Shown here: positions 12,237 to 35,940 of the stretch, piece by piece
Layout: each line of letters opens with the position of its first letter
Position numbering within the stretch: position 1 is the first letter of the stretch
Virus genome (UHGV): UHGV-0123934
DNA length: 38,805 nt
Direction: 5' to 3' (one strand)
Source: a virus
Notes under the pieces: model-generated
Databases searched by the model: none
Told to the model about the DNA's origin: nothing
What the model saw: only the letters and a program-made list of their open reading frames with translations
Program-made: the position numbers and the translations under genes

Positions 12237-12815
12237 ATGAAACTACGAATTCCAAACTCGGAAGTTCAAGAACTTCTAACCGACAAGTCTTTTGAGTATC
12301 CTAAATACGCGACTCAAATTATGAACTTGGCGAATCAAAATGCACAAGGTACTCGTCCGAATATTGTAGGTCAAATGAGCGACCTGATTCAAGAATTCGG
12401 AGCGGGATCGATGATTGAATGGGATGCTTGGTATAAGAACGGTCACCCGGAAGCGATTAAGACTGCAACCGAACGAGTATATCGGATGATTGAATTATTT
12501 AAAGAGAGTATTCAGACCATCGATAAGGATATGGTCCGAAAATGGATCGAAGAGCTTGTTGTTGTCAAAACTTATTGCGGATTAAAATTCCAAGAGGCCA
12601 TTCTCCGTAAAATTGCAGAAGAAAAGCAGTCGGACTACAGATTGGCGACCCCAGAAGAAGAAGCACAAGGTATAGATGGATTCATTGGAAATTCCCCGGT
12701 TAGTATCAAGCCGATCACGTATCGGATTATGAATGAACTACCGGAGCACATCGATGTGCCGATTATTTACTATGACAAGAAGAAATCAGAAATAGTGGTT
12801 GAATATAATTTTTGA
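12237..12815 (+). CDS. putative type II restriction endonuclease (or REase subunit)
   Basis: 192-aa AT-rich ORF convergent with the DNA methyltransferase in the same island; call rests on gene context only. Confidence 0.35.
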   Translation: MKLRIPNSEVQELLTDKSFEYPKYATQIMNLANQNAQGTRPNIVGQMSDLIQEFGAGSMIEWDAWYKNGHPEAIKTATERVYRMIELFKESIQTIDKDMVRKWIEELVVVKTYCGLKFQEAILRKIAEEKQSDYRLATPEEEAQGIDGFIGNSPVSIKPITYRIMNELPEHIDVPIIYYDKKKSEIVVEYNF

Positions 12816-12819
12816 TATT

Positions 12820-13440
12820 ATGCCATATACTGGAGGACCATTGAATACATTAAATGGGAAAATGGGTATTTCTGCTCCGGAGAATAGTGTACCTGTTATG
12901 AAATTAATTCGCATACATCATCCTAAAAGTAAAGAGGAATTAGTCGAATTAATAAAATGGCATTCTGAAAACAAGTGTGAATGCGGTATTATTAGTAGAG
13001 GAACGGTTGAACAATTTGGGAAAAATTTATATGAAGCTCAAAAAGCATTTTGGGGAGAATATAAATTTTCATTAGCAATATGCATCCAATGGGAATATGA
13101 TTTATTTGTTTTACAATCATTAAAAGGTTCTTTGGTTGAAGATGCTGCTATTAGGACTTTAGAGACCCAATTAGAGCCTGAATATGCTTTTTTAGAAGCA
13201 ACCGGTTATATGGATGAAGAATTGCGAATTGATATTATTTGCAAATATAACAATAGCATTATTGCCGGCATTCAGGTCAAACCTTTAACATTTTTAATGA
13301 TGAGACGAGAAATTATTACTTATAATGCTATGGCTAATCAAAAATGGGATAAACCTGTATATTATTTATATTATGACGAAAATGAAAATTTCGTAAATAT
13401 TGAAGAAGTAAAGTCTCATTTAAAATCATCGATTCTTTAA
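12820..13440 (+). CDS. hypothetical protein, R-M island (possible second REase subunit or specificity factor)
   Basis: ATG at 12820, 5 nt after the upstream stop; AT-rich; stop overlaps the MTase stop (convergent). Confidence 0.35.
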   Translation: MPYTGGPLNTLNGKMGISAPENSVPVMKLIRIHHPKSKEELVELIKWHSENKCECGIISRGTVEQFGKNLYEAQKAFWGEYKFSLAICIQWEYDLFVLQSLKGSLVEDAAIRTLETQLEPEYAFLEATGYMDEELRIDIICKYNNSIIAGIQVKPLTFLMMRREIITYNAMANQKWDKPVYYLYYDENENFVNIEEVKSHLKSSIL

Positions 13441-14582
13441 AATGTTAATGCAATCTGCGTTCGGGAAGGAATAGAAATAATACGCTTTCTATTCCCTACT
13501 TTTATTTCAGCAGTGACCGGAATAGTGTCCGCATATTCAGCAGTAATCATGTGATTGTTCCCTCTTATTGCAGATAAATAGACGAACCGCATATCTGTTT
13601 CTTGTGAAGTCATGACCGGCATCTGGAGATGCTCGTTGAAATGTTTGATCTCTTTATTTTGCGTTCGTTGCGAAACGAATTCTTTATGTGCTGCTATTCG
13701 ATTAGCAATAACTTCGTTCATTTGGTCAACCGATGATGAATGAATATTATCGGCTATAATATCTATAAACTTATCATCAATTTCATAACCAATACTATTG
13801 CGATTGCTCATGATAGATGCAATCGTAGTTGTACCGGTTCCTAAAAAAGGATCCATTACCGTATCTCCTTGCAACGAATACATATTGATTAGACGGTATG
13901 GAACTTCCAATGGATAGGCTGCACTCCTGTCTCGACTTTCTGCTGATATTTTTTGTTTGGTACCTTTTATATTGTCCCACAAATCGGAAAACCACACATT
14001 GCGTTCCTCCCAAAAGAACGAACTCTCACGGCGTTTCTGTTTGTCTATTGCAGATTTGAATTCGCGTTTACCTCCTTTGCGAAAAATCAAAATCCATTCG
14101 TGTTCCAATGTTACATATGCTCCTGCAGGAAGCATTCCGGACCCCATAAATTTATTTGGAGCATTCGTTTGCTTCCTCCAAATAATGTTTGGAAGATTTA
14201 CATACCCGTGAGCGGTGAAATAGTTAATTATACGGGAATGATTGGAGTATAAAGCAAAATTGCCATTGAATGTTCGCGTCGCATCACCGACATTGATACA
14301 GACGATTCCACCCGGGACAAGGACACGTGTCACCTCATCCCATACTTTATCCAGCTCTTGATGCATTAATTCAAAAGCCGCATCCGGCTGGTTTTCATCA
14401 AGGGCATTTGCAATACAAGGATTTTGTTTGCTTAATATCTCATCCCACATTTGAATCATGGGATATGGCGGAGATGTAACGACTAACTCGACCGAGTTGT
14501 CATTAATTTCTTTCATCTGTTGGGCAGCCCCAGTATATATGCTATGCGTTGTCTTCATAATTTCAAAGCAAAGATAATTCAT
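13437..14582 (-). CDS. DNA methyltransferase, beta-class amino-MTase (N4-cytosine or N6-adenine)
   Basis: Motif IV TSPPY near the N-terminus and motif I DPFLGTGTT further C-terminal (IV before I = beta class). Confidence 0.85.
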   Translation of the reverse strand: MNYLCFEIMKTTHSIYTGAAQQMKEINDNSVELVVTSPPYPMIQMWDEILSKQNPCIANALDENQPDAAFELMHQELDKVWDEVTRVLVPGGIVCINVGDATRTFNGNFALYSNHSRIINYFTAHGYVNLPNIIWRKQTNAPNKFMGSGMLPAGAYVTLEHEWILIFRKGGKREFKSAIDKQKRRESSFFWEERNVWFSDLWDNIKGTKQKISAESRDRSAAYPLEVPYRLINMYSLQGDTVMDPFLGTGTTTIASIMSNRNSIGYEIDDKFIDIIADNIHSSSVDQMNEVIANRIAAHKEFVSQRTQNKEIKHFNEHLQMPVMTSQETDMRFVYLSAIRGNNHMITAEYADTIPVTAEIKVGNRKRIISIPSRTQIALTF

Positions 14583-17249: not shown

Positions 17250-17602
17250 TGGATTTCAAGAAACATCTGATCGCGCTTTTGGAGCGTGAGATTCCAGAAT
17301 TGGCGGATAAGATTCAAGCCGGTGCGGTCGATGCCCGGACGCCTGCGCCTTTCGCCGCGTTCTCCGTACCGGAAGAGACGCCCGTAAGGACGCTACACGG
17401 CATCGTCGGCTATCGGACGATGTTCGAGGTAGCGGTCTATGACAGCAGGTTCTCCGGTGCGGAACGCCTCAAGCATCGGGTGATCGCCGCCTTGGAGGGT
17501 GCGGAGTTCGACGGCAAGCGCAGCCGCTTCGTCTCCTCGGCGGCGGAATACTATGCAGACTACGACGTGCACGGTGCGACGATGACATTCAGAATTGTTT
17601 AA
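17246..17602 (+). CDS. putative tail completion/terminator protein
   Basis: 118-aa ORF overlapping upstream stop (ATGA), last gene of the head-tail joining block; no motif. Confidence 0.4.
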   Translation: MMDFKKHLIALLEREIPELADKIQAGAVDARTPAPFAAFSVPEETPVRTLHGIVGYRTMFEVAVYDSRFSGAERLKHRVIAALEGAEFDGKRSRFVSSAAEYYADYDVHGATMTFRIV

Positions 17603-18242
17603 CCCAATCCGTAAAATCGAGTTTTATGAGTTGCCAGATTTTATTTTCAAGACAAACAGGGTCGGGATCACCATCCGCTCTCGTAAAATCGGTCAATCCC
17701 GCAAGGCATTCTTCGCGCGATGCTCCGTAGGGATATCGTGCTGCGTATAAAGCGAGCAGCTGCTCGATAGAATAGGCATTATGAAGAAGATGCAAATCCC
17801 AAAAGTCCTTTTTACGGCCGCCGCGGGCGATAACATCCATCTTCATCGCAACGATGTCGTCTACGGACGCCATACGGATCGTATCGTGCTGCTCTGCCGG
17901 GCGGATGAAGTCATCCGTATAGAACAGGTCGAGTTTTACGGACTTTTCCCGGTTCTGTCCGATGATATATGAGGCCCCGAAGCCGACGATTTCTCCGCAA
18001 TCACCCTGACAATAAGGAAACTCTTTGCGCAGAATATCCTGCAATTTATGGAAATCCAAAGATCTATACTCGGCATCGGTAAATAGATCTATATCGTCGG
18101 ACATACGATGTCCATAGCGCAAACTGAGCGAGGTGCCGCCGACAAGGCGGAACGGGGCGAATGCTTCGAGAGTCATCAGATGTTCGAGTGACGACCGCAG
18201 AATGGGTTTGACAGTATGGTATTGCAACGCTTTATGCTTCAT
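17589..18242 (-). CDS. nucleotidyltransferase, AbiEii/AbiGii toxin-like (DUF1814-like)
   Basis: N-terminal FRLVGGTSLSLRYGHRMSDDIDLF (GGT...S.DIDL polymerase-beta-like NTase signature); start overlaps upstream partner. Confidence 0.75.
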   Translation of the reverse strand: MKHKALQYHTVKPILRSSLEHLMTLEAFAPFRLVGGTSLSLRYGHRMSDDIDLFTDAEYRSLDFHKLQDILRKEFPYCQGDCGEIVGFGASYIIGQNREKSVKLDLFYTDDFIRPAEQHDTIRMASVDDIVAMKMDVIARGGRKKDFWDLHLLHNAYSIEQLLALYAARYPYGASREECLAGLTDFTRADGDPDPVCLENKIWQLIKLDFTDWVKQF

Positions 18243-18753
18243 AATCGAGATATTGCTTCAGGTTCTTTTTGATAACCGATGAGAATGGAGATGACGGCGA
18301 TAATCCGATCTTGCTTAAAATGGTTTCTCGACCATAAAAACGGATGGTTTCGATGATCTCTTCTTCATTGCCTCGCTCCATTACGCGATTGATAACGTAA
18401 CTGCTATGGGCATCCCAATTGATATTGTCGAACGATGTGTCCCAAAACAGGGAAGGTCGGTATTTTTCGAGATCCGGATGGTGAGCGGACGAAAGTTTTC
18501 GCTTCTCCTGCACAATGTCGTAGTGAACCTGCAGGGTCATGAGTATGCCTTCCTCTAATGCGAGCGCATGTTCGATTCGCAACGACAGCGGAATATTCAT
18601 CGACCTGCGGCCGCGAATAATGGCGCTTATGGTTTGGGGGTGCTCACCGATAGATTTAGCGAACCGACCGCTTTTCAGGTTTCGATTATTCAGCTCGCGT
18701 TGTAAGAAGAGTCCCGGATGTACTCCTTTCAGTATGTCGATTAAATTGTTCAT
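18232..18753 (-). CDS. HigA-like HTH antitoxin/regulator with C-terminal extension
   Basis: VHPGLFLQREL ... ISAIIRGRRSMNIPLSLRIEHALALEEGILMTLQVHYDI resembles the HigA/VapI antidote HTH; 11-nt overlap with the NTase gene; ATG at 18753 (track start 18762 is TTG). Confidence 0.6.
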   Translation of the reverse strand: MNNLIDILKGVHPGLFLQRELNNRNLKSGRFAKSIGEHPQTISAIIRGRRSMNIPLSLRIEHALALEEGILMTLQVHYDIVQEKRKLSSAHHPDLEKYRPSLFWDTSFDNINWDAHSSYVINRVMERGNEEEIIETIRFYGRETILSKIGLSPSSPFSSVIKKNLKQYLDYEA

Positions 18754-18817
18754 ACAACGCAAAAGTAAACATATTTGTTTATTTTAACAAATTTTATGCC
18801 GAAATATTTTTACGCTT

Positions 18818-19623: not shown

Positions 19624-19946
19624 CCTACGAGCGGTGGTTCGCCATCGCCGTCGGGCAGATGGGACTGGCACCCGAAGCCTTCGAACGCCTGACGCCCGCC
19701 GAGTTCATCTATGCGTGGCTCGGCTGGGCGAAACGCGAGGAAGACCGGCAGCGGCAGGCATGGGAGCGCGAACGGTGGGCGGTATGGGTTACGACTTGCA
19801 TCCAGCTTGACCGCAAAGACCGCCGACCGATGACCGAGATGTTCCCGCTGCCGTGGGAGGAACCGACGGCTCCCGCAAAGCAAGAACCGACCATGCAGGA
19901 ACGCATGGAACGAATCGAAGAAATGAAACGATGTATCCGAAAATAA
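19264..19946 (+). CDS. tail assembly chaperone G-T fusion via predicted -1 programmed ribosomal frameshift
   Basis: A_AAA_AAC heptamer at 19581-19587 in the gpG frame; the -1 frame is open from the slip site through ORF 19659..19946 (KKRETPDDGEPQAVTYERWFAIAVGQMGLAPEAFERL...). Confidence 0.55.
19581..19587 (+). other. -1 slippery heptanucleotide A_AAA_AAC
   Basis: Codons tca aaa aac in the gpG frame; manual frame tracing shows no stop in the -1 frame downstream. Confidence 0.55.
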
Positions 19947-20440
19947 CCTTGATTATCCTGACGATCGCAGCCAGCGGCTGCTCTCCGCTCCGAAGCACGC
20001 GATCCGAGCGGCACGAAACGCTTGCCATCTCCGACTCGACTGTTACGGAACTGGTCCGGCAGGAGTTCGGGCGGCAGATCGGAACGCTCCGCCGAACCGT
20101 CGTGGAGTTTTATCCGCCGACGGAATATCCGGAACCGAGCGACGATCGATTCCCGAATCCGATCGATACGCTCCGTGCCGTTCTTTCGCCTCCGAAAATT
20201 CCGGCGGCGAGCGCTTCCCGACAGCCGGTCAAACGCATCTCCTATACCGAGGTATCGATGCAGAATGACCGAACTATCCTTATCGACAGCATTTCGCATA
20301 GCCGCATCAACACGGCAGCCCGCAACGACGTGCAGGAGCAGACCGACGAGCAACCATCCTCCGGTGTCGCGTGGCTCAAATGGGCGACGGCGCTCGTCGC
20401 ACTGACGCTTCTGCTGCTCTTATTCCTCAAACTCCGATAA
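19931..20440 (+). CDS. putative lipoprotein with C-terminal membrane anchor
   Basis: ATG 19931 inside ORF 19853..20440; signal peptide with lipobox LTIAASGC; C-terminal hydrophobic helix WATALVALTLLLLLFL. Confidence 0.5.
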   Translation: MYPKITLIILTIAASGCSPLRSTRSERHETLAISDSTVTELVRQEFGRQIGTLRRTVVEFYPPTEYPEPSDDRFPNPIDTLRAVLSPPKIPAASASRQPVKRISYTEVSMQNDRTILIDSISHSRINTAARNDVQEQTDEQPSSGVAWLKWATALVALTLLLLLFLKLR

Positions 20441-20450
20441 CCGAACCCAT

Positions 20451-21233
20451 ATGGCAAGATTGAAAACTCCGATTTCATACTATGGCGGCAAGCAGATGCT
20501 TTTGAAGCATATCCTGCCGCTGATTCCCGAACATACGCTCTACACGGAAGCCTTCTGCGGCGGCTGCGCCGTGCTGTTCGCCAAGCCGCCCGCGCAGTGC
20601 GAAGTCATCAACGACACGAACACCGAATTGGTGAACTTCTACCGCGTGGCGCAGACCCAGTATGCGGCACTCAAGGCGATGATCGACGCGACGCTCCACA
20701 GCCGCGAGATACACGCGCACGCACGGCATATCAACGAGCATCCGTCGTTCTTCACGCCCGTCGAGCGGGCTTGGGCTGTATGGGTCTGCACGAAGTTGGG
20801 CTTCGCCTCGATGATCGACGGAACGTTCGGCTACGACCGCAGCGGTACGACGACGCTGAAACTCCGCAATGCGAAAGAGGCCTTCACCGAGGAGTTGTGC
20901 GGACGCCTCGGCCGCGTTACGGTCGAGTGCGAGGACGGCATCGATGTCATCCGCCGCTACGACTGTCCCGAGGCGTTCCACTTCGTCGATCCGCCCTATG
21001 TCGGCAGCGACTGCGGACACTACAACGGTACGTTCGACGAGGAGGATTTTTCGAGGCTGCTCGACACGCTCGCAACGGTCGAAGGGAAGTTCATGCTCAC
21101 GATGTTTCCGCACGAGAAGATCGAACGCCTCGCCGCCCGGCACGGCTGGACGATCCATCGGCTCGACCGCACCATCACCGCCTCGAAAGTTTCCCGCCGC
21201 CGGCAGGAGGAGTGGATTACGACGAACTACTGA
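20451..21233 (+). CDS. dam: DNA adenine methyltransferase (Dam-like, alpha class)
   Basis: N-terminal ISYYGGKQMLLKHILPLIP...EAFCGGCAVLF and motif IV FVDPPY. Confidence 0.85.
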   Translation: MARLKTPISYYGGKQMLLKHILPLIPEHTLYTEAFCGGCAVLFAKPPAQCEVINDTNTELVNFYRVAQTQYAALKAMIDATLHSREIHAHARHINEHPSFFTPVERAWAVWVCTKLGFASMIDGTFGYDRSGTTTLKLRNAKEAFTEELCGRLGRVTVECEDGIDVIRRYDCPEAFHFVDPPYVGSDCGHYNGTFDEEDFSRLLDTLATVEGKFMLTMFPHEKIERLAARHGWTIHRLDRTITASKVSRRRQEEWITTNY

Positions 21234-21240
21234 TACCGAC

Positions 21241-22017
21241 GTGGGTACATTCGCTTACGATAACCCCGCTTACATCGCTTCGTGCTCGTTCGGCAAGGAT
21301 TCGATCGCTACGATCCTCCTTGCCCTCGAATATGGCGAGCCGCTCGATGCCGCTGTCTTTTCGGAGGTGATGTTCGACCATCGGCGCAATATCAGCGGCG
21401 AGATGCCCGAACACATCGAGTGGATCTATTCGACGGCGATTCCGCGTCTTGCCGCCTTGGGCGTACGGGTCGATGTCGTCCGTTCGGAGAAAGACTATCT
21501 TACGTTATTCCATACGGTCATAGGGAGCAGTACGCATAAGGGTATGCTGCGCGGCTGGCTCATCGGCGGCAAGTGCTGCGCCAATCGCGACCTCAAAATC
21601 CGGCCTATACATCGCTATTATGCCCGTTATCGAGAGCAAGGCATCGTGCAGTACGTCGGCATCGCGGCCGACGAACCGAGACGCCTCGCGCGGATGCAGG
21701 ACAAAGGGTATAACCGTAAAACGAGTCTGCTCGCCAAGTACGGGTACACCGAGGCGGACGCCCGACGCAAGTGCGAAGAATACGGTCTGCTGTCGCCTCT
21801 CTACCGCACCTCGCATCGGGGCGGTTGCTGGTTCTGCCCCAACTGTCGCATTCCGGTCTTCGCCGAACTGCGCCGCCGCCATCCTGAATTGTGGCGTGAA
21901 CTGCAACTGCTTTCGAAGGTCGGAAATAAGTCCTCCGAAGGTTTCAAATACGGGCTGACTTTCGAGGAGGTCGAGCGGCGGATGGATCTCTTCGAACACT
22001 CACCGACGCCATTCTAA
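21241..22017 (+). CDS. PP-loop ATPase, PAPS reductase/QueC-like family protein
   Basis: PP-loop SFGKDS near the N-terminus, C-terminal Cys cluster GGCWFCPNC; start uncertain (GTG 21241 is the first start after the dam stop). Confidence 0.65.
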   Translation: MGTFAYDNPAYIASCSFGKDSIATILLALEYGEPLDAAVFSEVMFDHRRNISGEMPEHIEWIYSTAIPRLAALGVRVDVVRSEKDYLTLFHTVIGSSTHKGMLRGWLIGGKCCANRDLKIRPIHRYYARYREQGIVQYVGIAADEPRRLARMQDKGYNRKTSLLAKYGYTEADARRKCEEYGLLSPLYRTSHRGGCWFCPNCRIPVFAELRRRHPELWRELQLLSKVGNKSSEGFKYGLTFEEVERRMDLFEHSPTPF

Positions 22018-25094: not shown

Positions 25095-25133
25095 GCCGGA
25101 GCCGCATTATGTGCGGCTCCGGTATTTTATTTT
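25095..25133 (+). terminator. intrinsic terminator preceded by inverted leader motif cagttgtttattgca (25080-25094)
   Basis: Perfect 11-bp stem ccggagccgca/tgcggctccgg, 5-nt loop, then attttatttt. Confidence 0.7.
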
Positions 25134-25175
25134 GTATGTAAATAATGATTAAATTTGTAACGAAAACAGAATACG

Positions 25176-26216
25176 ATGAAAGCCTATACCTATATCGAAC
25201 ACGGGCGGTTCGAGCTGCTCGACAAGCCGGAACCCGCCTTGCAGGACCCTCGCGACGCCATCGTGCGCGTGACGCTCGCGAGCATTTGTACCAGCGACCT
25301 GCATATCAAGCACGGCAGCGTACCCCGCGCCATTGAGGGCATCACCGTCGGCCACGAGATGGTCGGCATCGTCGAGGAGGTCGGGTCGGAGGTGCGCAGC
25401 GTAAAGGTCGGCGACCGCGTGACGGTCAACGTCGAGACCTTCTGCGGCGAATGCTTCTTCTGCAAGCGCGGCTACGTGAACAACTGCACCGATCCCGACG
25501 GAGGCTGGGCACTTGGCTGCCGCATCGACGGCGGGCAGGCGGAGTATGTCCGCGTGCCGCATGCCGATCAAGGGTTGAACCGCATTCCCGATACGGTGAG
25601 CGACGAGCAGGCATTGTTCGTGGGCGATATTCTGGCTACAGGTTATTGGGCGGCGAAGATTTCGGAGATTGCGCCCGACGACACGGTCCTGATTATCGGT
25701 GCCGGACCGACGGGTATCTGCACGCTGCTTTGCGCAAGATTGAAGCGCCCGAAGCGAATCATCGTCTGCGAAAAATCGCCCGAACGGCGGCGATTCGTGC
25801 GGGAACACTATCCCGAGGTGCTGACGGTCGCACCGGAGGAGTGTCGCGAGGCGGTTTATGCGAACAGCGACCGTGGTGGCGCCGACGTCGTGCTGGAGGT
25901 GGCCGGTGCGGAGGATACGTTTCGCCTGGCGTGGGAGTGCGCCCGCTCCAATGCGACGGTTGTTATTGTTGCGCTCTACGACCGGCCGCAGATGTTGCCG
26001 CTGCCCGACATGTACGGCAAGAACCTCACCTTCAAGACGGGCGGCGTAGATGGCTGCGACTGCGCCGAGATACTCCGGCTGATCGAGGCGGGCGAGATTG
26101 ACACCACGCCGCTCATCACGCACTGTTATCCGCTCGGCCGCATCGCCGAGGCATACGACCTCTTCGAAAACCGCCGCGACGGAGCGATCAAGGTGGCTAT
26201 CGATTGTACCGAATAG
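25176..26216 (+). CDS. zinc-dependent alcohol dehydrogenase family protein (MDR superfamily)
   Basis: Catalytic-zinc signature GHEMVGIVEEVG, structural-zinc Cys cluster CGECFFCKRGYVNNC, Rossmann motif LIIGAGPTG. Confidence 0.85.
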   Translation: MKAYTYIEHGRFELLDKPEPALQDPRDAIVRVTLASICTSDLHIKHGSVPRAIEGITVGHEMVGIVEEVGSEVRSVKVGDRVTVNVETFCGECFFCKRGYVNNCTDPDGGWALGCRIDGGQAEYVRVPHADQGLNRIPDTVSDEQALFVGDILATGYWAAKISEIAPDDTVLIIGAGPTGICTLLCARLKRPKRIIVCEKSPERRRFVREHYPEVLTVAPEECREAVYANSDRGGADVVLEVAGAEDTFRLAWECARSNATVVIVALYDRPQMLPLPDMYGKNLTFKTGGVDGCDCAEILRLIEAGEIDTTPLITHCYPLGRIAEAYDLFENRRDGAIKVAIDCTE

Positions 26217-26241
26217 AGGTATGTATCCGCGCGATAATATT

Positions 26242-26943
26242 TCACGTCAGCGTCCACCCCTTGTCTGTTGCGATCGCTTTTTGGATAGCATTCAGTTTCG
26301 CGAGGTTCTTCGCTCCGATATTGCAGGTCTTGCCATTGCCGGTATCGGATAGCGCGTTCAACAGGAATACCAAACTCTCTACCATGAGTTTCGGACAGCC
26401 GTTCACGGCGATGTCTACATTGACGGGGCCGTCGATGATTACCGTTTCGAGTGCGGAGCAGGAGACGAACGTCGTGTCGATCTTCGATGTTACCTTGCTG
26501 AAGTCAAGTCTTCCGCCGATTTTACGCAGGCTCTTGCAGCCGTGGAACATCTCCGAAGCGGAAGTAATGCGCGAGGTGTCCAGTCCGCCGATCTCCTGCA
26601 AGTTCGTACAACCGTAGAAAGCATACATCATATTCGCGACGTTCGAGGTGTCGAGCGTCGGCACACGCTCCAGCGCCGTACAGCCGTAGCACATCTGATA
26701 CATCGAATCGAACGACGCTGTGTCGAGTGCCGGAAATACCGACATCGTCGTATTGCCCCGAAAGAGCTGGTAGCCGTTGCGGATCTGATTCATTCCGCTG
26801 GTGCTGTCCACCAATGCGACTTTATCGACGAGCGATACCAACGTCTCTTCGTCGGTTATCGCCACGCCTTTGTCGCGTAGCGCCCCGGCAAGGTGCTGCC
26901 GCAGCGCATCGAGCCGCAAAACGAGTGAAGTAAAGTCTGCCAT
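26242..26943 (-). CDS. BspA-type leucine-rich repeat protein (putative tail-associated adhesin/receptor-binding component)
   Basis: Tandem repeats of the F.GC..L..I...DTS....M..F.GC type (MCYGCTALERVPTLDTSNVANMMYAFYGCTNLQEIGGLDTSRITSASEMFHGCKSLRKIG). Confidence 0.65.
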   Translation of the reverse strand: MADFTSLVLRLDALRQHLAGALRDKGVAITDEETLVSLVDKVALVDSTSGMNQIRNGYQLFRGNTTMSVFPALDTASFDSMYQMCYGCTALERVPTLDTSNVANMMYAFYGCTNLQEIGGLDTSRITSASEMFHGCKSLRKIGGRLDFSKVTSKIDTTFVSCSALETVIIDGPVNVDIAVNGCPKLMVESLVFLLNALSDTGNGKTCNIGAKNLAKLNAIQKAIATDKGWTLT

Positions 26944-26946
26944 ACG

Positions 26947-27180
26947 CTATCCGATAATATGGTTCAGTGCCTCCTCGATGCCCGTCAGTCCGAGCGAAGC
27001 GGTCATCGCATCGACCAACGTCGCATAAGTTACGGCAGCACCCGTACCGTTGCGGTCGATTTCGATAAGGTCGGTGGCTGCCAAAGTCGTCACCTTCGGG
27101 AGTTGAGAGAGCGTGATCGTATCGGTATCCGATCCGGTTGCAAGCCGTCCTATAATCGCCCCTGTTTGTTCTGTTGCCAT
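26947..27180 (-). CDS. hypothetical small protein (tail fibre module)
   Basis: 77-aa ORF tightly packed between the tail fibre and LRR genes. Confidence 0.4.
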   Translation of the reverse strand: MATEQTGAIIGRLATGSDTDTITLSQLPKVTTLAATDLIEIDRNGTGAAVTYATLVDAMTASLGLTGIEEALNHIIG

Positions 27181-27184
27181 AATT

Positions 27185-29323
27185 CTATTCTTCGTAAATC
27201 TTGAATTCGGACATCATCTGATAAGTTACGTGCCACATGCATTTGGCGGAGGAATAGGGCGACGGCACAGCCAACAGTTGCAGTAGTCCTCCGTAGGTCT
27301 CGATGCGAGGAACCGGCAGATAGCCCATTCCGTAGGCATCTTTCTTCAGTGTCGTCACGATGCCCGACTGCGTGTCGTCCGCCGCAAGTACCAGACTGGG
27401 CGACGAACGGGTGCGGATCGGACAGTCGTAGAGGTTCACCACGCTGCCGATATATTCGGCCGATGTCGGCAGGTTAAGCCAAATGAGGTAAGTGCCGAAA
27501 TCCGCGCCGTTGGCGATCAGGTTGAAGTTGCGGTTCAATGTATACTTGCGGGTCGAGGCGTTGTAGTCCGTGCCTTCGTCCGTGAAGTATTTGAACTGCA
27601 CCTTCGAATATCCGCTGAAGATACCGCTCGCCATTTCGACATGTCCGTCTTCGTAGATGCGTGTGGCAGCCGTCGCAGCATTCTCGATACCGTCCGCGCC
27701 GGCGAAGAACATCAACTTGCCGTGCTTCGACGTCGGAGCGCCTTTCAATGCGCAGCCAGCCATACCCGCTACGACCTTCTTGTCCGTATCATCCTTTACG
27801 CCGACGAACCCTGACAGCACCACACCGCTTCCGGCATCGATCTCCGTCGAGATATCCTGAAAGTTCTCGCGCAGATACTCCAGATCGCTGTTGTCGCTTT
27901 TCGCCGCTTCGTCCAAGAGCGCTCCGATCGTCCGGCGGGCCGTGTAGTAAGCCTCGATGTCGGCGAAATCATCCTCGACCGGAATGAACTCCGGTTCCGG
28001 CTGCGTATATTTCCCGATGGCGGCGACGGCCCGCTGATAGGCATCTTCGTAGGGTGTCCACTCATCGGCGAGCAACCGAACGGCGCGCCGCTTGCCGTGC
28101 ACCATAAGTATTTTCCCGTTCGCGCTGCGATAACGAAACACAGAGAGCAGCCGCAGGGCATTGGCGCGGAGTTGTTCGTATTCGGTTCGGATATCCTGCA
28201 AGCGCTCTTTCAGGAACGACTTCTCCACAGGAGAGACGTACTCATCGGAGTTGATACGACCGAGCGTCTCCAACGTCGAGGAGATCGTCTGCATCAACTC
28301 GTCGAAATCCGTTCCGGCATCGGGCTTCGCGGGATCGATGCGACCGAAGCGTAAGATCCCGTTGCGGAAACTTACGCCATAACCCGTCGTACGGTTGAAG
28401 AGCTGCATATCGCCCGTCGCGGAGTCGAACCACGAGTCGCCCGACCTGTCCGAGAGGAAGCCCGAGAGGTAGATGTTTTTCAAATAGGCCGAATAACCGG
28501 TCATATCCAGACCGTGCGCCTTGAGATTCGAAAGGTCGCCGAACTGCGCTGCGATATTCTCCGTGCGGATCGTCCAGTCGTCCATACCCGTGAGAAACCG
28601 CAGGTAGGTGCGGGTTTCGTAGCGGGAGGTCCGGCGCTCCTTGTCGGTCGTATTGCCGAATGCCACGAACTGCATCGCCGCCTGCGGGTGATAGGGATAA
28701 CCCTCGCGCAATTCGTACCGCCATTCGGCGTAGGTATCGCGGTCGAGGCACTCGGTAAGCCGGAAGTAGCAGGTTGTGAAGCCGGCATAGGTGCGGTTGC
28801 CGAACGAGTCGTCCGAATCGACGGTATTGCCGCTCGATGCGTCCATTGCCGAGTTCAGAAAGATGCCGATACAGAGATCGTTCTCGCGTAGGGTGCTTGT
28901 TTCGCCCTCCTCCAACTTGACGACCAGCATCCGGTTCTCCGGCGAGACGAGCTCGACGATGCCGCCGCCCGGAGCGGACCACCGATCGCCGACGACCGTT
29001 TCGATGCGGTTGTAGCGATATTCGGGGACCTCCAGGAACTCCTCCAAATGAAGCCGCCGCAGGTACGTATCGCCCATAACCGATAAGTCGCCCGAGATCG
29101 TACCGCCTTTCTTGTCCAACTTCTTGTCGAGTTCGCCCGACAGTCCCGTGATGTCGGAGACGGCGTGCGTATGCTTCTTCGGAGCCATTACGCTTTTGAT
29201 CTCCTTACCGGAAACCTTCATCGATGCGGCGGCTGTCGGGACGTCGACGATGAACTCGAATGCGTCGAACTCCGCCAATTGTCCCGAAGCGCTCGCGAGG
29301 TCTTTGATGCGAACTTCGTCCAT
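27185..29323 (-). CDS. phage tail fibre / receptor-binding protein
   Basis: ATG at 29323 (ORF track extends to 29503); N-terminal KKHTHAVSDITGLSGELDKKLDKKGGTISGDLSV-type fibre segment. Confidence 0.55.
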   Translation of the reverse strand: MDEVRIKDLASASGQLAEFDAFEFIVDVPTAAASMKVSGKEIKSVMAPKKHTHAVSDITGLSGELDKKLDKKGGTISGDLSVMGDTYLRRLHLEEFLEVPEYRYNRIETVVGDRWSAPGGGIVELVSPENRMLVVKLEEGETSTLRENDLCIGIFLNSAMDASSGNTVDSDDSFGNRTYAGFTTCYFRLTECLDRDTYAEWRYELREGYPYHPQAAMQFVAFGNTTDKERRTSRYETRTYLRFLTGMDDWTIRTENIAAQFGDLSNLKAHGLDMTGYSAYLKNIYLSGFLSDRSGDSWFDSATGDMQLFNRTTGYGVSFRNGILRFGRIDPAKPDAGTDFDELMQTISSTLETLGRINSDEYVSPVEKSFLKERLQDIRTEYEQLRANALRLLSVFRYRSANGKILMVHGKRRAVRLLADEWTPYEDAYQRAVAAIGKYTQPEPEFIPVEDDFADIEAYYTARRTIGALLDEAAKSDNSDLEYLRENFQDISTEIDAGSGVVLSGFVGVKDDTDKKVVAGMAGCALKGAPTSKHGKLMFFAGADGIENAATAATRIYEDGHVEMASGIFSGYSKVQFKYFTDEGTDYNASTRKYTLNRNFNLIANGADFGTYLIWLNLPTSAEYIGSVVNLYDCPIRTRSSPSLVLAADDTQSGIVTTLKKDAYGMGYLPVPRIETYGGLLQLLAVPSPYSSAKCMWHVTYQMMSEFKIYEE

Positions 29324-29671
29324 AACGACGTGAAAATAACGCTTCGCCGAACCTTTTTCGGGATACAAAGTCCCTAATTCCGAAGAATGCCTTATCTTTG
29401 TAATTGCATTCCGCTCTGTCGGGATGCGACATATTATTCGACTTAACCTCGGAAAAAACTGGTAATTTTTTAGCAAATGGTTAAGCACTCCGTATCCTCG
29501 CATCGAACGGCTCCTGCCGTAAGGTTCGGGATATGGTCATATCCCTGCTTTACGGCGTGGGCTATACGTGCTTATCATTTGCAGGTATACCAGTACCTTT
29601 CCGAGATAGGCGGCAGTAGGCCCACGTTCTTTTTTGTCCGGCGGACAGACGCGATCCTATCTGCCATTTCG

Positions 29672-30181
29672 ATGATTATGAAAGCAACGAATCGAATACC
29701 GGATCGCCGTGTCGTGCGACCGTTGACCGCACGGATATTGCGGTCGTTTCTGGTGGCGTCGGAACGCTCGCATCACCATATTTATGCGCTGTGGGAACAC
29801 GCATCGATCCTGTCATTTGCGATAAAGAATGCAGACGGCGAATATTTGTCTTTGCGAGAGTTTTTCAGCAAGGGCGATGCGGTTGCGCCCGACGATCCGC
29901 TCATCGTCATCTTCCACGAAATGCATATCGAAACCGTGGAAGAATTGACCGCTGAATATATCGAACGCATTTATGAATCGTTTCTCTACCATCATTGCGA
30001 GATGGAATTGCGCCGCAACGCCCCGCTCCGTTTGACTCCGGAATCGATACGACGATACGGCTTGACCGAGGCGGATGCTGTCCTTGTCGGCGAGCATCTC
30101 GAAGTCCTGAACGAGATGATCCGTCGGAAACTCCAGCGGCAATACGACGAACTCAAAGCCTTGGATTGCATTCGGAAGTAG
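29672..30181 (+). CDS. hypothetical protein
   Basis: ATG 29672 inside ORF 29477..30181; GC-rich, divergent from the tail fibre gene, upstream of the SIR2-NTPase gene. Confidence 0.4.
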   Translation: MIMKATNRIPDRRVVRPLTARILRSFLVASERSHHHIYALWEHASILSFAIKNADGEYLSLREFFSKGDAVAPDDPLIVIFHEMHIETVEELTAEYIERIYESFLYHHCEMELRRNAPLRLTPESIRRYGLTEADAVLVGEHLEVLNEMIRRKLQRQYDELKALDCIRK

Positions 30182-30255
30182 TATTTTAAGTACTATCATA
30201 AGTTTTATGGAGTAGATTCTCATTCTTTTTTGCTGGAAATTGCGAAATAAAGAAG

Positions 30256-30279
30256 ATTTTGCTATTTTTATAGCAAAAT
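30256..30279 (+). promoter_or_regulatory. perfect 10-bp inverted repeat attttgctat-tttt-atagcaaaat, operator-like, 8 nt upstream of the SIR2-NTPase start
   Basis: Read directly from the sequence. Confidence 0.5.
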
Positions 30280-30287
30280 AATATAAT

Positions 30288-32780
30288 ATGGACGCTAAGA
30301 TTGAAAAACTTAAATTCAGCCTGCGACACAATAATCCTAATTTATTTGTTGGTGCAGGGTTTTCGTTAGGTGCTACTCTGCAAAATAATGCACCGATTCC
30401 AAGTGGAGCGACATTAAAAGATGGCATTATTACAAATATCCTTAAATACCCGAAATCCAGCCCGGAATATAATGAACTTTCCATATTACCATTGTGTAAA
30501 GTTTGTACTATTACAGTCGCAGAAAAAGGTCGTGAAGAACTTTATTCTTATTTACAGTCCATATATCAAAATGTGCAACCAGCCGAATTCCATAAATCAT
30601 ATATTAAATATCCTTGGCATAACATATATTCGACCAATATCGATGATGTAATTGAAAATGCTTGTGCAATTGAGAATGTGCCTATTATTATATATAATGA
30701 GCCACATAACCCTAAACCAAAACAAGATAAAAGTCTTGTATTATATAAATTGCATGGCTGTGTTAATAACATGGACGCAGGCGTTATTTTTGATGAGGAA
30801 GAATATATCGATTCTATTTTAGATAGAACTGACCATAGATTTGGTAATTTATCTATTGAATTTCAAACAAAAGATTTTGTTTTCGTTGGATCTGATTTTG
30901 ATGATTTTAACATTAATTATTATTTAAGTTTATACTCAGCAAATGGTACAGATTCAGGCCGAGGAAATTTGTTTTTTATTAATCCAAAGCCATCATATGC
31001 TTTTAAGAGTAGGATAAAGCAGGTTGGAGGAATTTTGATAGAATTCAATGCGAAGCAATTTGCAGAATTGATTGATTCCATAAGATTTGATTTAGAGACA
31101 ATAAACGAAACCAAACTGTCGTATGATGGTTATGTGCGTGTCAAACAATTAAAAGACAATTTGTCGTCAAATCATTACGATTCGGATTTATATCTTGGAG
31201 CGCGTCCGAAATGGACAGATATTTTTTACGATTGGGATATTATTTTATCGCCCGCAATTAAGACATTCATTTCTACATTGGATGATTTTGAAATCGATGA
31301 TAAGAATACTTTGGTTTATGCTATACACGGGCGAGGATATTCCGGGAAGTCTGTACTAATAAAAAGACTTGCTAACATTCTCATTGATGCAAATTATGAA
31401 ATCATTTCATTTGAAGGAAAAAATTTCAACTCCAATAGATTCTTACATTATATAAATAAATCACAATATCACAAGTTTGCATTAATTGTTGATGATGCCA
31501 GTTATTTATATAGCCAGTTTGAATATTTGTGCAAGAAAGTATCTGGAAAAATTAAACTGTGTATTATATCGGCTTCAAGAATATTTCTTCATAACAAGCG
31601 AAAATATAGTCTTGTAAATATAAATAGCGTAGAATACGAGATGACAATAACTATAGATGAAGCTATTGCATCTGATATTATTAACAAATTAAACCAAAGA
31701 GGCTATTTAGGACGTATTCTTCGTTCCTGCCCAGATAAAGATTCTCAAATTCAATTCGCAAAAAATAATACGGATATAGCATCTGCTATTTTTGCTATTA
31801 CATATGGGAAAGATTTCCAACGCCGTTTTGCTGCAGATGTCAATAATATTATCAAAGATGGCAATTATAGAGATCCGCTAATCAAATTGGCAATTTTTCA
31901 GAAAATGCAATTAGCATATTGCCCTCGAGAGTTATTCGTTAGATTATATGGAAAGCGAATTATAGGGATATTGCAACGTATGGAGAATATTTTAAGAGAT
32001 GCGCATTCTCCACGCCTTGAGCTAAAAAATGATTTTATTGGAGATATTATCCTTAAAAATTCAACATCTGTAGAAATAATAAATAGTTTGAAAGAGCTAT
32101 TGGTATATATTTCATCAATGGTTGAAAACACCTCCAATTCTTACTGGAATGAGATTCAGTCTATATTAATGAGAGATAAGTTAGTTCGTGATGTCTTAAA
32201 TATAAAACCTTCTGATTTTAAGCAAATGCTATATGAAATAAGAGAATATTATTATGACAATTACAACTATTGGCTTCAATTAGGAATTGCGGAGCAATTG
32301 GCAGGAGATTATGATAAGGCGTTAATTCATTTTAGCCAAGCACAAATATACGGCCCCAAATCCTATATGGTAAAAAACGCAATTGGTCGCAATTATATAT
32401 TTCAGGCAATTAAAGAATTGGATAATGATATTGCTATAAAATTATTTAATGAAGGGAAATGTATTTTATTTGAATTAATTAAAAATAGAGAAGAATATCA
32501 AGCGAAAGCATATTCAACGCATACATATATTGCTGGATTGATAAGGTTTTATAAACGAAAGCACAATTTGAAAATTTCCTCAAAAGAAGCTAAAGAAGCA
32601 CAGTCTCTTATCAATACAATACGCATAAAATATAAAGGAGATCCAATATTTGAAAATTTAAACTCGACTTTCACTAAATTTATTTTACAACATTCTTCGA
32701 ATATGACATTAAATTTACAAGAGTTACAAATGTCATATAGAAATTGTGTAGATGAAGTGGAATTCATAGATATGGATTAG
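30288..32780 (+). CDS. SIR2-like domain protein fused to P-loop NTPase and helical repeat domain (SIR2-STAND / Avs5-like candidate antiphage protein)
   Basis: SIR2-family motifs LFVGAGFSLGA, IYSTNIDDVIE, LYKLHGCV, FVFVGSDFDDF; Walker A IHGRGYSGKS and Walker B FALIVDDA; C-terminal about 450 aa helical/TPR-like; strongly AT-rich. Confidence 0.75.
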   Translation: MDAKIEKLKFSLRHNNPNLFVGAGFSLGATLQNNAPIPSGATLKDGIITNILKYPKSSPEYNELSILPLCKVCTITVAEKGREELYSYLQSIYQNVQPAEFHKSYIKYPWHNIYSTNIDDVIENACAIENVPIIIYNEPHNPKPKQDKSLVLYKLHGCVNNMDAGVIFDEEEYIDSILDRTDHRFGNLSIEFQTKDFVFVGSDFDDFNINYYLSLYSANGTDSGRGNLFFINPKPSYAFKSRIKQVGGILIEFNAKQFAELIDSIRFDLETINETKLSYDGYVRVKQLKDNLSSNHYDSDLYLGARPKWTDIFYDWDIILSPAIKTFISTLDDFEIDDKNTLVYAIHGRGYSGKSVLIKRLANILIDANYEIISFEGKNFNSNRFLHYINKSQYHKFALIVDDASYLYSQFEYLCKKVSGKIKLCIISASRIFLHNKRKYSLVNINSVEYEMTITIDEAIASDIINKLNQRGYLGRILRSCPDKDSQIQFAKNNTDIASAIFAITYGKDFQRRFAADVNNIIKDGNYRDPLIKLAIFQKMQLAYCPRELFVRLYGKRIIGILQRMENILRDAHSPRLELKNDFIGDIILKNSTSVEIINSLKELLVYISSMVENTSNSYWNEIQSILMRDKLVRDVLNIKPSDFKQMLYEIREYYYDNYNYWLQLGIAEQLAGDYDKALIHFSQAQIYGPKSYMVKNAIGRNYIFQAIKELDNDIAIKLFNEGKCILFELIKNREEYQAKAYSTHTYIAGLIRFYKRKHNLKISSKEAKEAQSLINTIRIKYKGDPIFENLNSTFTKFILQHSSNMTLNLQELQMSYRNCVDEVEFIDMD

Positions 32781-35137: not shown

Positions 35138-35143
35138 AGCGGT

Positions 35144-35551
35144 TTAGGGTTTGTGTTGCAGATAGAGCATCCAGCCGGCCTCGACATCCGATAGTACCGC
35201 CGACCGCCCGTTTTCCACACGCGATATAGCCGCCACGATGGGGATCATCGTTTCGCCCTCCTGCGTATCTACCGGCTCGTCGGCGCCGATGCCCGACCAC
35301 TCGGCCACGCAACGGATATAGTTCTCGGTATGGTTCTCGACGGGCGGAGCGTAGCGCGAGATCATCTGCCGGATTGTCCGGTAACCCTTGCGGGAGTAGG
35401 AGTCCAGCAGCACGAACATCGCGCGGTAGCCCCACGCCATCGTCTCGAATTGCTTGAATGCCGTATCGCGCGAGGGCGCAACTTCGCCCAGATACTTCGT
35501 CGCCGACCGGCGGATATTGCCGGGATTACGATTGCTCAGTCCTCTGCTCAT
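35144..35551 (-). CDS. hypothetical protein (NPGNIR motif; possible lysis or virion protein)
   Basis: ATG at 35551 (upstream part of ORF 35144..35755 is low-complexity S/R-rich and overlaps the neighbouring gene). Confidence 0.4.
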   Translation of the reverse strand: MSRGLSNRNPGNIRRSATKYLGEVAPSRDTAFKQFETMAWGYRAMFVLLDSYSRKGYRTIRQMISRYAPPVENHTENYIRCVAEWSGIGADEPVDTQEGETMIPIVAAISRVENGRSAVLSDVEAGWMLYLQHKP

Positions 35552-35555
35552 TGCT

Positions 35556-35930
35556 TTATGATTTTCGGTTATTCTCGTCGTTCTCTTTGCGCTTGCGCTC
35601 CAACTCGGCTCTTTTGAGCAAGACCGGGCAATGTTCGGGCGGCGTTTCGCACTTGTAGGCCTGTCGGATGACGATGCGGCTGCGATCGATTTCCACGTCC
35701 TTGTGCTCGATGATGATTTCGAGTTTGCCGACCTTCTCTTCGAGTTTCTCCACACGCCCGTCCAGCCGCGTGATCTGCTCGGACTGGATCGCTACGACTT
35801 TCTCCGTGTTCGCTAATTCGGCGGAGTCGGCGGCCGCGTTCTCCTTGCGTTTCTTCGCGTTGAAAAAGAGAATCGTTCCCGCCAGACCGCTGGCGAGAAT
35901 GAAGTTCAGAATGATGGATAGTGTTTCCAT
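35556..35930 (-). CDS. membrane-anchored coiled-coil protein (holin/spanin-like candidate)
   Basis: N-terminal hydrophobic helix LSIILNFILASGLAGTILFF followed by a charged coiled coil. Confidence 0.45.
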   Translation of the reverse strand: METLSIILNFILASGLAGTILFFNAKKRKENAAADSAELANTEKVVAIQSEQITRLDGRVEKLEEKVGKLEIIIEHKDVEIDRSRIVIRQAYKCETPPEHCPVLLKRAELERKRKENDENNRKS

Positions 35931-35940
35931 AGTATTGCAC

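Follow-up and report, generated by a model that had tools for sequence, protein, structure and literature searches.

Methylase and PP-loop genes at the locus

UHGV virus genome UHGV-0123934, a stretch of 38,805 nucleotides (nt) referred to as a whole as the window, represents a siphovirus-type prophage integrated in Alistipes, and between positions 20451 and 22017 it carries two closely spaced open reading frames (ORFs), of which the first (ORF A) encodes a DNA methylase and the second (ORF B) a PP-loop protein related to SspD, the ATP-pyrophosphatase/sulfur-insertion subunit of the Ssp systems for DNA phosphorothioation (PT). In phages such PP-loop genes go by the name of 'PAPS reductase', and they are among the commonest unexplained phage genes. 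A first-pass annotation of the DNA had pointed to both genes, to the 7-nt gap between them, and to the PP-loop SFGKDS and the cysteine cluster GGCWFCPNC of the second protein, all of which are present exactly at the positions it gave. The features of the pair, with protein lengths in amino acids (aa), are as follows.

20451..21233, plus strand: ORF A, orphan D12-class (alpha) N6-adenine DNA methyltransferase; ATG at 20451, TGA end, 260 aa
20553-20564, plus strand: motif I of ORF A, F35-C-G-G38
20982-20999, plus strand: F178-V-D-P-P-Y183 of ORF A, including motif IV DPPY (residues 180-183, nt 20988-20999)
21234..21240, plus strand: 7-nt spacer from the stop codon of ORF A to the GTG of ORF B
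21241..22017, plus strand: ORF B, orphan SspD-like PP-loop ATP pyrophosphatase (PAPS-reductase-like fold); GTG start, 258 aa
21286..21303, plus strand: PP-loop S16-F-G-K-D-S21 of ORF B, predicted ATP alpha/beta-phosphate binding loop, aligned with SGGKDS of SspD
21574..21579, plus strand: Cys112-Cys113 of ORF B; C112 is a candidate first metal or sulfur ligand, C113 occurs only in close relatives
21772..21774, plus strand: Cys178 of ORF B, kept in the family of phages and other mobile genetic elements, absent from SspD
21820..21846, plus strand: G194-G-C196-W-F-C199-P-N-C202 of ORF B; GCWFCPN core conserved, C202 variable

ORF A matches the Pfam family PF02086 (MethyltransfD12) with an E-value of 1.2e-20 and 74.8 bits (cut-off 22), and its motif I precedes DPPY, which is the order of the alpha class; the family match and the motif order bear out the earlier identification of an alpha-class adenine methyltransferase with an FVDPPY motif. 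It also matches phrog_56 (E 1e-62) and the PADLOC model MTase_II (E 3.9e-34), and full-length relatives occur in 348 phage records. With the orphan phage adenine methylases of the D12/Dam family, the relatives of DpnM and T4 Dam, ORF A shares FxGxG, a target-recognition region and DPPY in the alpha order, whereas it is remote in sequence from the GATC-specific enzymes of the Dam family: its score against TIGR00571 'dam' is 70.2 bits, under the cut-off of 114.85, and it is distant from both DpnM (E 2e-7) and T4 Dam (E 1e-3), so that a GATC target cannot be assumed. There is no restriction endonuclease gene adjoining ORF A, an orphan methylase of the ordinary phage kind.

A scan of the sequence between ORF A and ORF B found no promoter-like or terminator-like site in the 7-nt spacer, and the two genes are therefore probably co-transcribed. 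The identical junction was found in loci L001-L005 and in other Alistipes loci. Homologues of ORF B begin at or just after the GTG, which places its start at 21241; a longer version from an ATG at 20869 in the same open frame, which overlaps the methylase, was rejected.

Homology of ORF B to SspD

The family of ORF B is large, with 3633 database homologues that fall into 1466 clusters at 50% identity, and by profile match (phrog_424 'PAPS reductase', E 2.5e-31) and by homology to named members it belongs with the phage proteins of the phrog_424, NinC and p0018 type. In PADLOC, SspD was the sole family match of ORF B (39.6 bits, E 1.2e-10), extending over residues 113-235 only; for four other members of the family it was likewise the sole match or, for one of them, by far the best. 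A reference SspD was reached through a weak plasmid match in Trichormus variabilis plasmid A (NC_007410.1), which lies inside an sspBCD operon that PADLOC confirmed (SspB 5e-125, SspC E 0, SspD 7e-119). The hhalign comparison of this protein with the family profile A1 gave a probability of 98.9% and an E-value of 1.1e-17 over 200 columns, and the PP-loop, C112, GIAADE, G-C196-W-F-C199 and HPELW (HPEL[WF]) motifs were matched in the alignment. With the same profile, the lambdoid NinC-type protein gp21 was matched at a probability of 94.9% (E 4.5e-8) and the PAPS domain of p0018 from Vibrio phage 44E38.1 at 90% (E 1.5e-6).

ORF B and the SspD of T. variabilis are similar in size (258 versus 268 aa) and about 27% identical, and they share the SxGKDS loop, a single cysteine before a K-x-x-P helix, and the motifs G-C-[WF]-F-C, GI[AR]ADE and HPEL[WF]. 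ORF B thus carries the SGGKDS-type PP-loop ATP pyrophosphatase domain of SspD, but its match to the SspD model is not full-length and not at the level of a true member (39.6 versus 394.7 bits), and its family, although clearly homologous by hhalign, is a clade separate from true SspD. The two also differ in setting: SspD resides in chromosomal defence islands together with sspB, sspC and sspA, whereas ORF B lies in prophages and conjugative elements without such neighbours, and Cys178 is an extra feature of its family.

Two phage proteins offer further comparison. The 'putative NinC protein' gp21 of Escherichia phage ArgO145 (KY914478.1) is a stand-alone PP-loop protein with the same motifs and a PADLOC SspD match of 2.4e-14; it belongs to another clade (23% identity, 292 aa) and to a lambdoid early region, and no methylase directly adjoins it in the stretch examined. 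Vibrio p0018 likewise has an SspD-like PP-loop domain with C...CxxC and GI.ADEP.R (PADLOC SspD 1.4e-15), and it combines this domain with an adenine methylase in one phage expression unit, as in the window. However, p0018 is one fused protein of 479 aa with the PAPS domain at the N-terminus, whereas the window has two genes with the methylase first; moreover, its methylase is of the small phage Dam type (PADLOC oMTase) and not D12, its PP-loop reads SGGRTS, and its identity to ORF B is about 25%. The Vibrio phage, moreover, has a Vibrio host in which a Dnd system is known.

Metabolic CysH proteins were clearly more distant. ORF B scored 18.0 bits against PF01507 (cut-off 22.5), and hhalign gave no significant match to CysH of E. 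coli (E 0.13) or to the Fe-S-type CysH of B. mycoides (E 0.22). The C-terminal catalytic motif ECG[LI]H, present in both of these reductases, is absent from the 258-aa protein; its ATP-pyrophosphatase loop SxGKDS, in contrast, is complete, CysH reading SSSFGIQA or CSFGVEG at this place. A scan of ORF B against NCBIfam yielded no CysH, DndC or QueC match, and neither a preQ0 pathway nor co-occurrence with DpdA/TGT, as expected for QueC, was found. The alignment to SspD, the missing ECGLH tail and the intact PP-loop thus mark ORF B as SspD-like, and as neither a metabolic reductase nor a QueC-like enzyme. The phrog_424 and SspD matches uphold the first-pass placement of ORF B in the PAPS-reductase-like branch of PP-loop enzymes, and the metabolic CysH identity that the annotation had named as the outcome speaking against its reading did not materialise. 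Its narrower suggestion of a DndC-like or QueC-like protein held in one half: the nearest characterised relatives are DNA phosphorothioation enzymes (SspD), and the QueC branch falls away.

DndC and BrxP are members of the same PAPS-reductase-like PP-loop superfamily, with the same proposed ATP pyrophosphatase and sulfur-insertion activity (PMC12914056, PMC10853773), but the DndC profiles (468-586) and BrxP (779) are far longer than ORF B, which is a single 258-aa domain without a DUF4007 fusion. Neither a BrxP nor a DndC match was obtained in PADLOC or NCBIfam at E <= 0.01, a true SspD used as control matching DndC weakly. The Cys dyad described for DndC (PMC10853773) is not preserved, C113 being variable, and no DndD/E is linked to ORF B in the annotation of the window; brxP, for its part, adjoins brxC, brxZ and brxL, and no BrxC-type homologue was found in the window.

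Neither the ORF B sequence alone nor the family profile had a significant match when searched against PDB sequences. The best PDB matches of the ORF B model in Foldseek were Fe-S tRNA thiolases, with low TM-scores (0.40-0.44), and its best structural matches in BFVD were phage 'PAPS reductases'.

Conserved residues of ORF B

Conservation was assessed in a set of 30 sequences at 35-85% identity and in an 83-sequence alignment consisting of the window protein and 82 representatives at 35-51% identity; the family alignments cited below are A1, which included locus-derived sequences and supplied the hhalign profile, and A2, which was used for the AF2 model. The PP-loop residues S16, G18, K19, D20 and S21 are invariant in A1 and A2 and present in 70-75 of the 83 aligned sequences. 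C112 is also invariant in A1 and A2 and is found in 79 of the 83 (95%), and its aligned counterparts are the cysteine in 'RWCTV' of SspD and C110 in Vibrio p0018; its neighbour C113 is not conserved and is replaced by Ala, Tyr, Trp or Val in representatives. C178 is conserved at 90% or more in A1 and present in 69 of the 83 sequences (83%), and the aligned position of SspD holds Leu. The GCWFC motif aligns with 'GCFFC' of SspD and 'NCVFC' of p0018: in A1, W197, F198, C199, P200 and N201 are invariant and C196 reaches at least 90%. The first-pass annotation had singled out the whole C-terminal cluster (CxxCxxC); its first two cysteines are indeed conserved (C196 in 68 and C199 in 69 of the 83 sequences, 82-83%), but the third, C202, occurs in only nine. 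Entries that lack C178, C196 or C199 in the 83-sequence alignment are mostly frameshifted or truncated.

The spacing from C112/113 to C196 is 84 residues, compared with 83 from the CC to the CxxC of the Fe-S-type CysH of B. mycoides, and the equivalence of these cysteines to the Fe-S ligands of APS reductases is one of fold similarity, motif order and spacing only. The AF2 model of ORF B, made from a 55-sequence alignment, has a pLDDT of 89.9, and its two internal blocks of lowest confidence, residues 111-120 and 191-200 (pLDDT 74), coincide with the two cysteine motifs, which is expected for loops that are ordered by a cofactor outside the model. A Cys-ligated Fe-S or persulfide site may therefore lie beside the ATP site of the protein.

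Absence of phosphorothioation partner genes

When all six-frame ORFs of the window and 118 related loci were searched by phmmer, SspD detected 113 ORFs (one in the window and 112 elsewhere), and neither SspB nor SspC had a match in any of them. The SspC query itself matches the BrxC model at 2.6e-138, and so covers homologues of both the SspC and the BrxC type. Moreover, Pfam and PHROG annotation of the window revealed no DndD/E, BrxC, cysteine desulfurase, ParB-like, DpdA/TGT, QueD/E or 7-deazaguanine gene, which leaves the ParB-like and DpdA/TGT-like partners proposed by the first-pass annotation without a counterpart in the window. Those large proteins of the window that the annotation had left unassigned belong to the tail or virion. 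The Ssp operon arrangement, in which the sspB nickase (DUF4007), the sspC ATPase and the sspA desulfurase lie nearby, was not found either. Since no SspB or SspC homologue is present in the window or the 118 related loci, the genes of the ORF B family, carried by prophages and conjugative elements, are SspD-like orphans. That the locus consists of an orphan SspD-like enzyme adjoining an orphan D12 methylase is held with high confidence.

Distribution of the family and association with DNA methylases

Identical copies of the methylase/PP-loop pair were found within contigs of 55-459 kb, and relatives at 78-95% identity occur in Alistipes metagenome-assembled genomes, where the same methylase lies directly upstream wherever upstream sequence is present; the two genes are thus co-inherited among Alistipes prophages as far apart as about 78% identity. 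Its GC content (0.585-0.60) is that of the phage backbone. Beyond Alistipes, the family of ORF B is found in prophages of Bacteroidales, Clostridia and Helicobacter, in an archaeal virus, in phage-plasmids, and in conjugative elements, where it adjoins TraG, TrbL, ArdC and topoisomerase genes.

Decaying or interrupted copies also occur among the Alistipes loci. In L006 (1790-2764) an insertion of about 975 nt separates the methylase from the PP-loop gene, and frameshifts affect the methylase of L007 and the PP-loop gene of L015, P0016 and P0025. An apparent methylase-PP-loop fusion of 450 aa (P0012) was set aside as a decayed or mis-assembled copy, since it has deletions inside both halves and a motif mutated to DSPY. 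Ten longer 'fusion' proteins were also rejected; they join the PP-loop protein to an integrase, TraG/T4CP, PTS or decarboxylase sequence, or to no extra Pfam domain, and in none of the ten is a methylase joined to it. All that these probable gene-call chimeras demonstrate is the occurrence of the family in conjugative elements as well.

The association with methylases was quantified in 52 loci that were non-redundant at 80% identity, and enrichment was tested on genes of at least 100 aa. A co-oriented methylase lies within 300 bp of the PP-loop gene in 11 of these loci (about 21%), the gap being -25 to +38 nt in ten and 212 nt in one. Methylases account for 11 of the 98 adjacent genes, versus 11 of the 342 genes that are at least three positions away (odds ratio 3.8, Fisher p = 0.003). 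The adjacent methylases belong to the C5 (PF00145; five loci), D12 (three), N6_N4 (two) and PF05869 Dam (one) families, and a fifth type, DUF4942/MTS, lies one small gene away in L033. While the D12 methylase is constant among close Alistipes relatives, the neighbour changes in more distant loci, where it is often a methylase of another family. Other immediate neighbours of the PP-loop gene are ArdC-N, SAM synthetase and topoisomerase genes, as well as SSB and YopX. The methylase association of the family is therefore real but facultative.

Two individual loci deserve mention. On a 36-kb viral contig (L037, 2236-5195), the PP-loop homologue is flanked on one side by a diversity-generating retroelement (bAvd and reverse transcriptase) and on the other by a PF05869 Dam methylase, which starts 2 nt past the stop codon of the homologue and is followed by a MazG gene. 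On T. variabilis plasmid A (L123, 326078-340716), sspBCD adjoins a 'DNA phosphorothioation-associated putative methyltransferase', so that a PT enzyme and a methylase again occur together; a DndB-annotated gene, a DEAD-box helicase gene and a phospholipase D-family gene are also near.

Proposed function and alternative explanations

With moderate confidence, the pair is proposed to be a co-transcribed epigenetic counter-defence cassette of the Alistipes siphovirus-type prophage. The ORF A methylase would mark phage DNA and thereby blunt methyl-sensitive restriction. The ORF B protein, as a stand-alone homologue of SspD, would bind ATP, adenylate its substrate, presumably DNA, and release pyrophosphate, while its cysteine set would hold an Fe-S cluster or a persulfide, with sulfur supplied by a host cysteine desulfurase. 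The enzyme might plug into, or compete with, the PT machinery of the host (Ssp, BREX type 4 or Dnd), and the neighbouring methylase might serve as its DNA-binding partner. The benefit would be escape from PT-based or other modification-sensing defences, as reported for a remote, Dam-fused homologue of a Vibrio phage. The proposal draws on the SspD homology with its intact PP-loop and conserved C112, C178, C196 and C199, on the orphan status of the gene and its residence in mobile genetic elements, and on the enrichment and tight spacing of the methylases.

Published work provides part of the background. A gene region of a Vibrio podovirus, of which the main product is a PAPS-domain/Dam fusion (p0018 of phage 44E38.1), is reported to turn a Dnd-sensitive phage Dnd-resistant (Piel et al. 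2022; preprint 10.1101/2021.05.05.442762), and this report on a remote phage homologue lends weight to the first-pass reading of ORF B as a PT-type enzyme. In gut Bacteroidota, PT is made by BrxC and BrxP, the latter amounting to SspD fused with SspB (PMC12914056, Nature Communications 2026). Aca-regulated phage PAPS reductases have been listed as DndC/SspD homologues and putative anti-defence genes (NAR 2026), and phage 'PAPS reductase' genes are still read as sulfur-metabolism auxiliaries, for example in a 2026 Bifidobacterium prophage preprint. This type of gene has thus already been seen in many phages and linked to defence evasion. The present data add comparative evidence that a large gut-associated clade (1466 clusters) consists of orphan SspD homologues in which the motifs are kept and the partners are absent, and the preference of this clade for sites next to DNA methylases of unrelated families supports a DNA-directed role in counter-defence. 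The gain is incremental, because phage PAPS reductases have already been published as DndC/SspD-like anti-defence candidates.

Several observations weigh against a counter-defence cassette. The ATPase partner that known PT synthesis requires (SspC, BrxC or DndD) is not encoded in the window, and isolates that had a PAPS-reductase gene without the partner ATPase had no PT (PMC12914056). The PADLOC match to SspD is partial and scores far below that of true SspD, and the top PDB matches in Foldseek are tRNA thiolases, which makes an RNA substrate possible. Either gene is frameshifted in some prophages, and the cassette is accordingly dispensable for lysogeny. About four-fifths of the non-redundant loci have no adjacent methylase, and the two genes may be paired only because both reside in hot spots for anti-restriction or moron genes. 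Joint action of the methylase and the PP-loop protein in giving phage DNA a second modification, as put forward by the first-pass annotation, is unproven, since the PT partners are missing and no more than about 21% of the non-redundant loci have an adjacent methylase.

The strongest competitor, though still a tentative one, holds that the SspD-like gene and the methylase are functionally independent, each being an anti-restriction or moron gene inserted at variable hot spots that the two share in phages and conjugative elements, and that the SspD-like protein acts alone or with host factors while the methylase adds nothing to its reaction. The presence of a methylase within 300 bp in only 11 of the 52 loci is consistent with independence, and the at least four unrelated families of the adjacent methylases argue against a specific protein-protein partnership. 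The other frequent neighbours (ArdC-N, SAM synthetase, SSB and YopX) fit as well, and in the window the pair lies in what is itself a zone of morons, flanked by a lipoprotein gene upstream and five promoter-plus-small-gene cassettes downstream. However, independence sits poorly with the roughly 3.8-fold enrichment of methylases next to the PP-loop gene, with the fact that the adjacent methylases are all co-oriented and mostly abut or overlap the SspD-like gene, and with the existence, in Vibrio phages, of a protein in which a homologous domain and a Dam methylase are naturally fused.

A bolder version of the DNA-modification proposal is considered unlikely. ORF B might modify DNA with sulfur by itself or under the guidance of a methylase, placing a phosphorothioate or thio-base near methylase sites, with the adjacent or fused methylase (cf. 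p0018) acting as a sequence-recognition module in place of the DNA-scanning partners SspB/SspC or DndD/E. If so, phages and conjugative elements would gain a second epigenetic mark through as few as two genes, independently of the PT machinery of the host.

Two further explanations are judged improbable, and to the same degree. According to one, ORF B would be an RNA-modifying PP-loop enzyme or tRNA thiolase like TtuA, NcsA or TtcA, by which translation would be retuned or tRNAs shielded from host anticodon nucleases. The thiolases lead the Foldseek matches with low TM-scores, no tRNA thiolase family HMM matches ORF B, the SspD profile match is far better (E 1e-17), and the neighbours of the gene are DNA methylases, ArdC and replication genes, not tRNA genes. 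According to the other, ORF B would be an antagonist without modifying activity that titrates SspB/C, BrxC, DndD/E or the desulfurase, or depletes a cofactor, and in this way disables PT-dependent discrimination of self from non-self without marking phage DNA. ORF B duplicates, as an orphan, a single component of a machine with several subunits, which would suit such a role, and the anti-Dnd phenotype of the Vibrio homologue (10.1101/2021.05.05.442762) could fit it; nevertheless, the strong conservation of the PP-loop residues and cysteines across 35-95% identity points to enzymatic activity.

An auxiliary metabolic role, in which ORF B as a CysH-type PAPS/APS reductase would boost sulfate assimilation of the host during lysogeny, is very improbable in view of the PF01507, NCBIfam, motif and hhalign results given above, and no other cys genes lie nearby. 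A QueC-like enzyme that feeds 7-deazaguanine DNA modification is the least probable of all, its traces being a weak, non-significant profile match to B. subtilis QueC over the PP-loop and CxxC segment (E 0.27) and phage QueC structures low in the BFVD list.

Other features of the prophage

The gene order of the window starts with an RteC-like regulator, a replication initiator, an integrase, the small and large terminase subunits, portal, S78 protease, HK97 capsid and connectors, and continues with the tail tube, chaperone-sized genes, the lipoprotein gene, the methylase and PP-loop genes, five small genes, and tape-measure and other virion proteins. The gene directly upstream of the methylase (19931-20440) ends 10 nt before the start of ORF A and encodes a 169-aa protein whose N-terminus is of the lipoprotein type (LTIAASGC) and whose C-terminus has a hydrophobic helix; the protein matches no family and may be a surface or exclusion moron.

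Downstream of the pair, between positions 22006 and 24693, the window contains five direct repeats of about 104 nt that are 62-85% identical to one another and start at 22006, 22481, 23293, 23919 and 24574, the first covering the final 12 nt of the PP-loop gene. Each repeat lies directly upstream of a small ORF, with the ATG at the 3' end of the repeat in three instances (22119, 23406 and ~24688), and each contains a TAtgTTTG box that resembles the -7 promoter element of Bacteroidetes. Together the repeats form an array of promoter-plus-small-gene cassettes, one product of which matches phrog_1987.

Defence genes are located in two islands of low GC content (0.32-0.39, compared with 0.55-0.61 for the backbone) at 12237-14582 and 30288-32780. 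One of these islands contains two ORFs for MjaI-like restriction endonucleases and an N4/N6 methylase, and the other a SIR2_2 plus nSTAND NTPase protein (SIR2-STAND). Also counted among the low-GC defence morons are an AbiEii toxin gene and a DUF6922/HTH gene on the minus strand inside the tail module (17596-18814); this cassette is absent from L001 and L003, which are otherwise 97-98% identical, suggesting a recent moron insertion or deletion.

Finally, the window is inverted after about position 25122 (25123-38805) relative to the 94-98% identical prophage in L001 (13960-20122). In L001, the plus strand continues directly with the genes for a 954-aa virion protein and the tape-measure protein, whereas in the window the same genes are on the minus strand, past the ADH, DUF285, 772-aa and SIR2-STAND genes. 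L002 and L003 share the inverted arrangement of the window, which is therefore not a misassembly.

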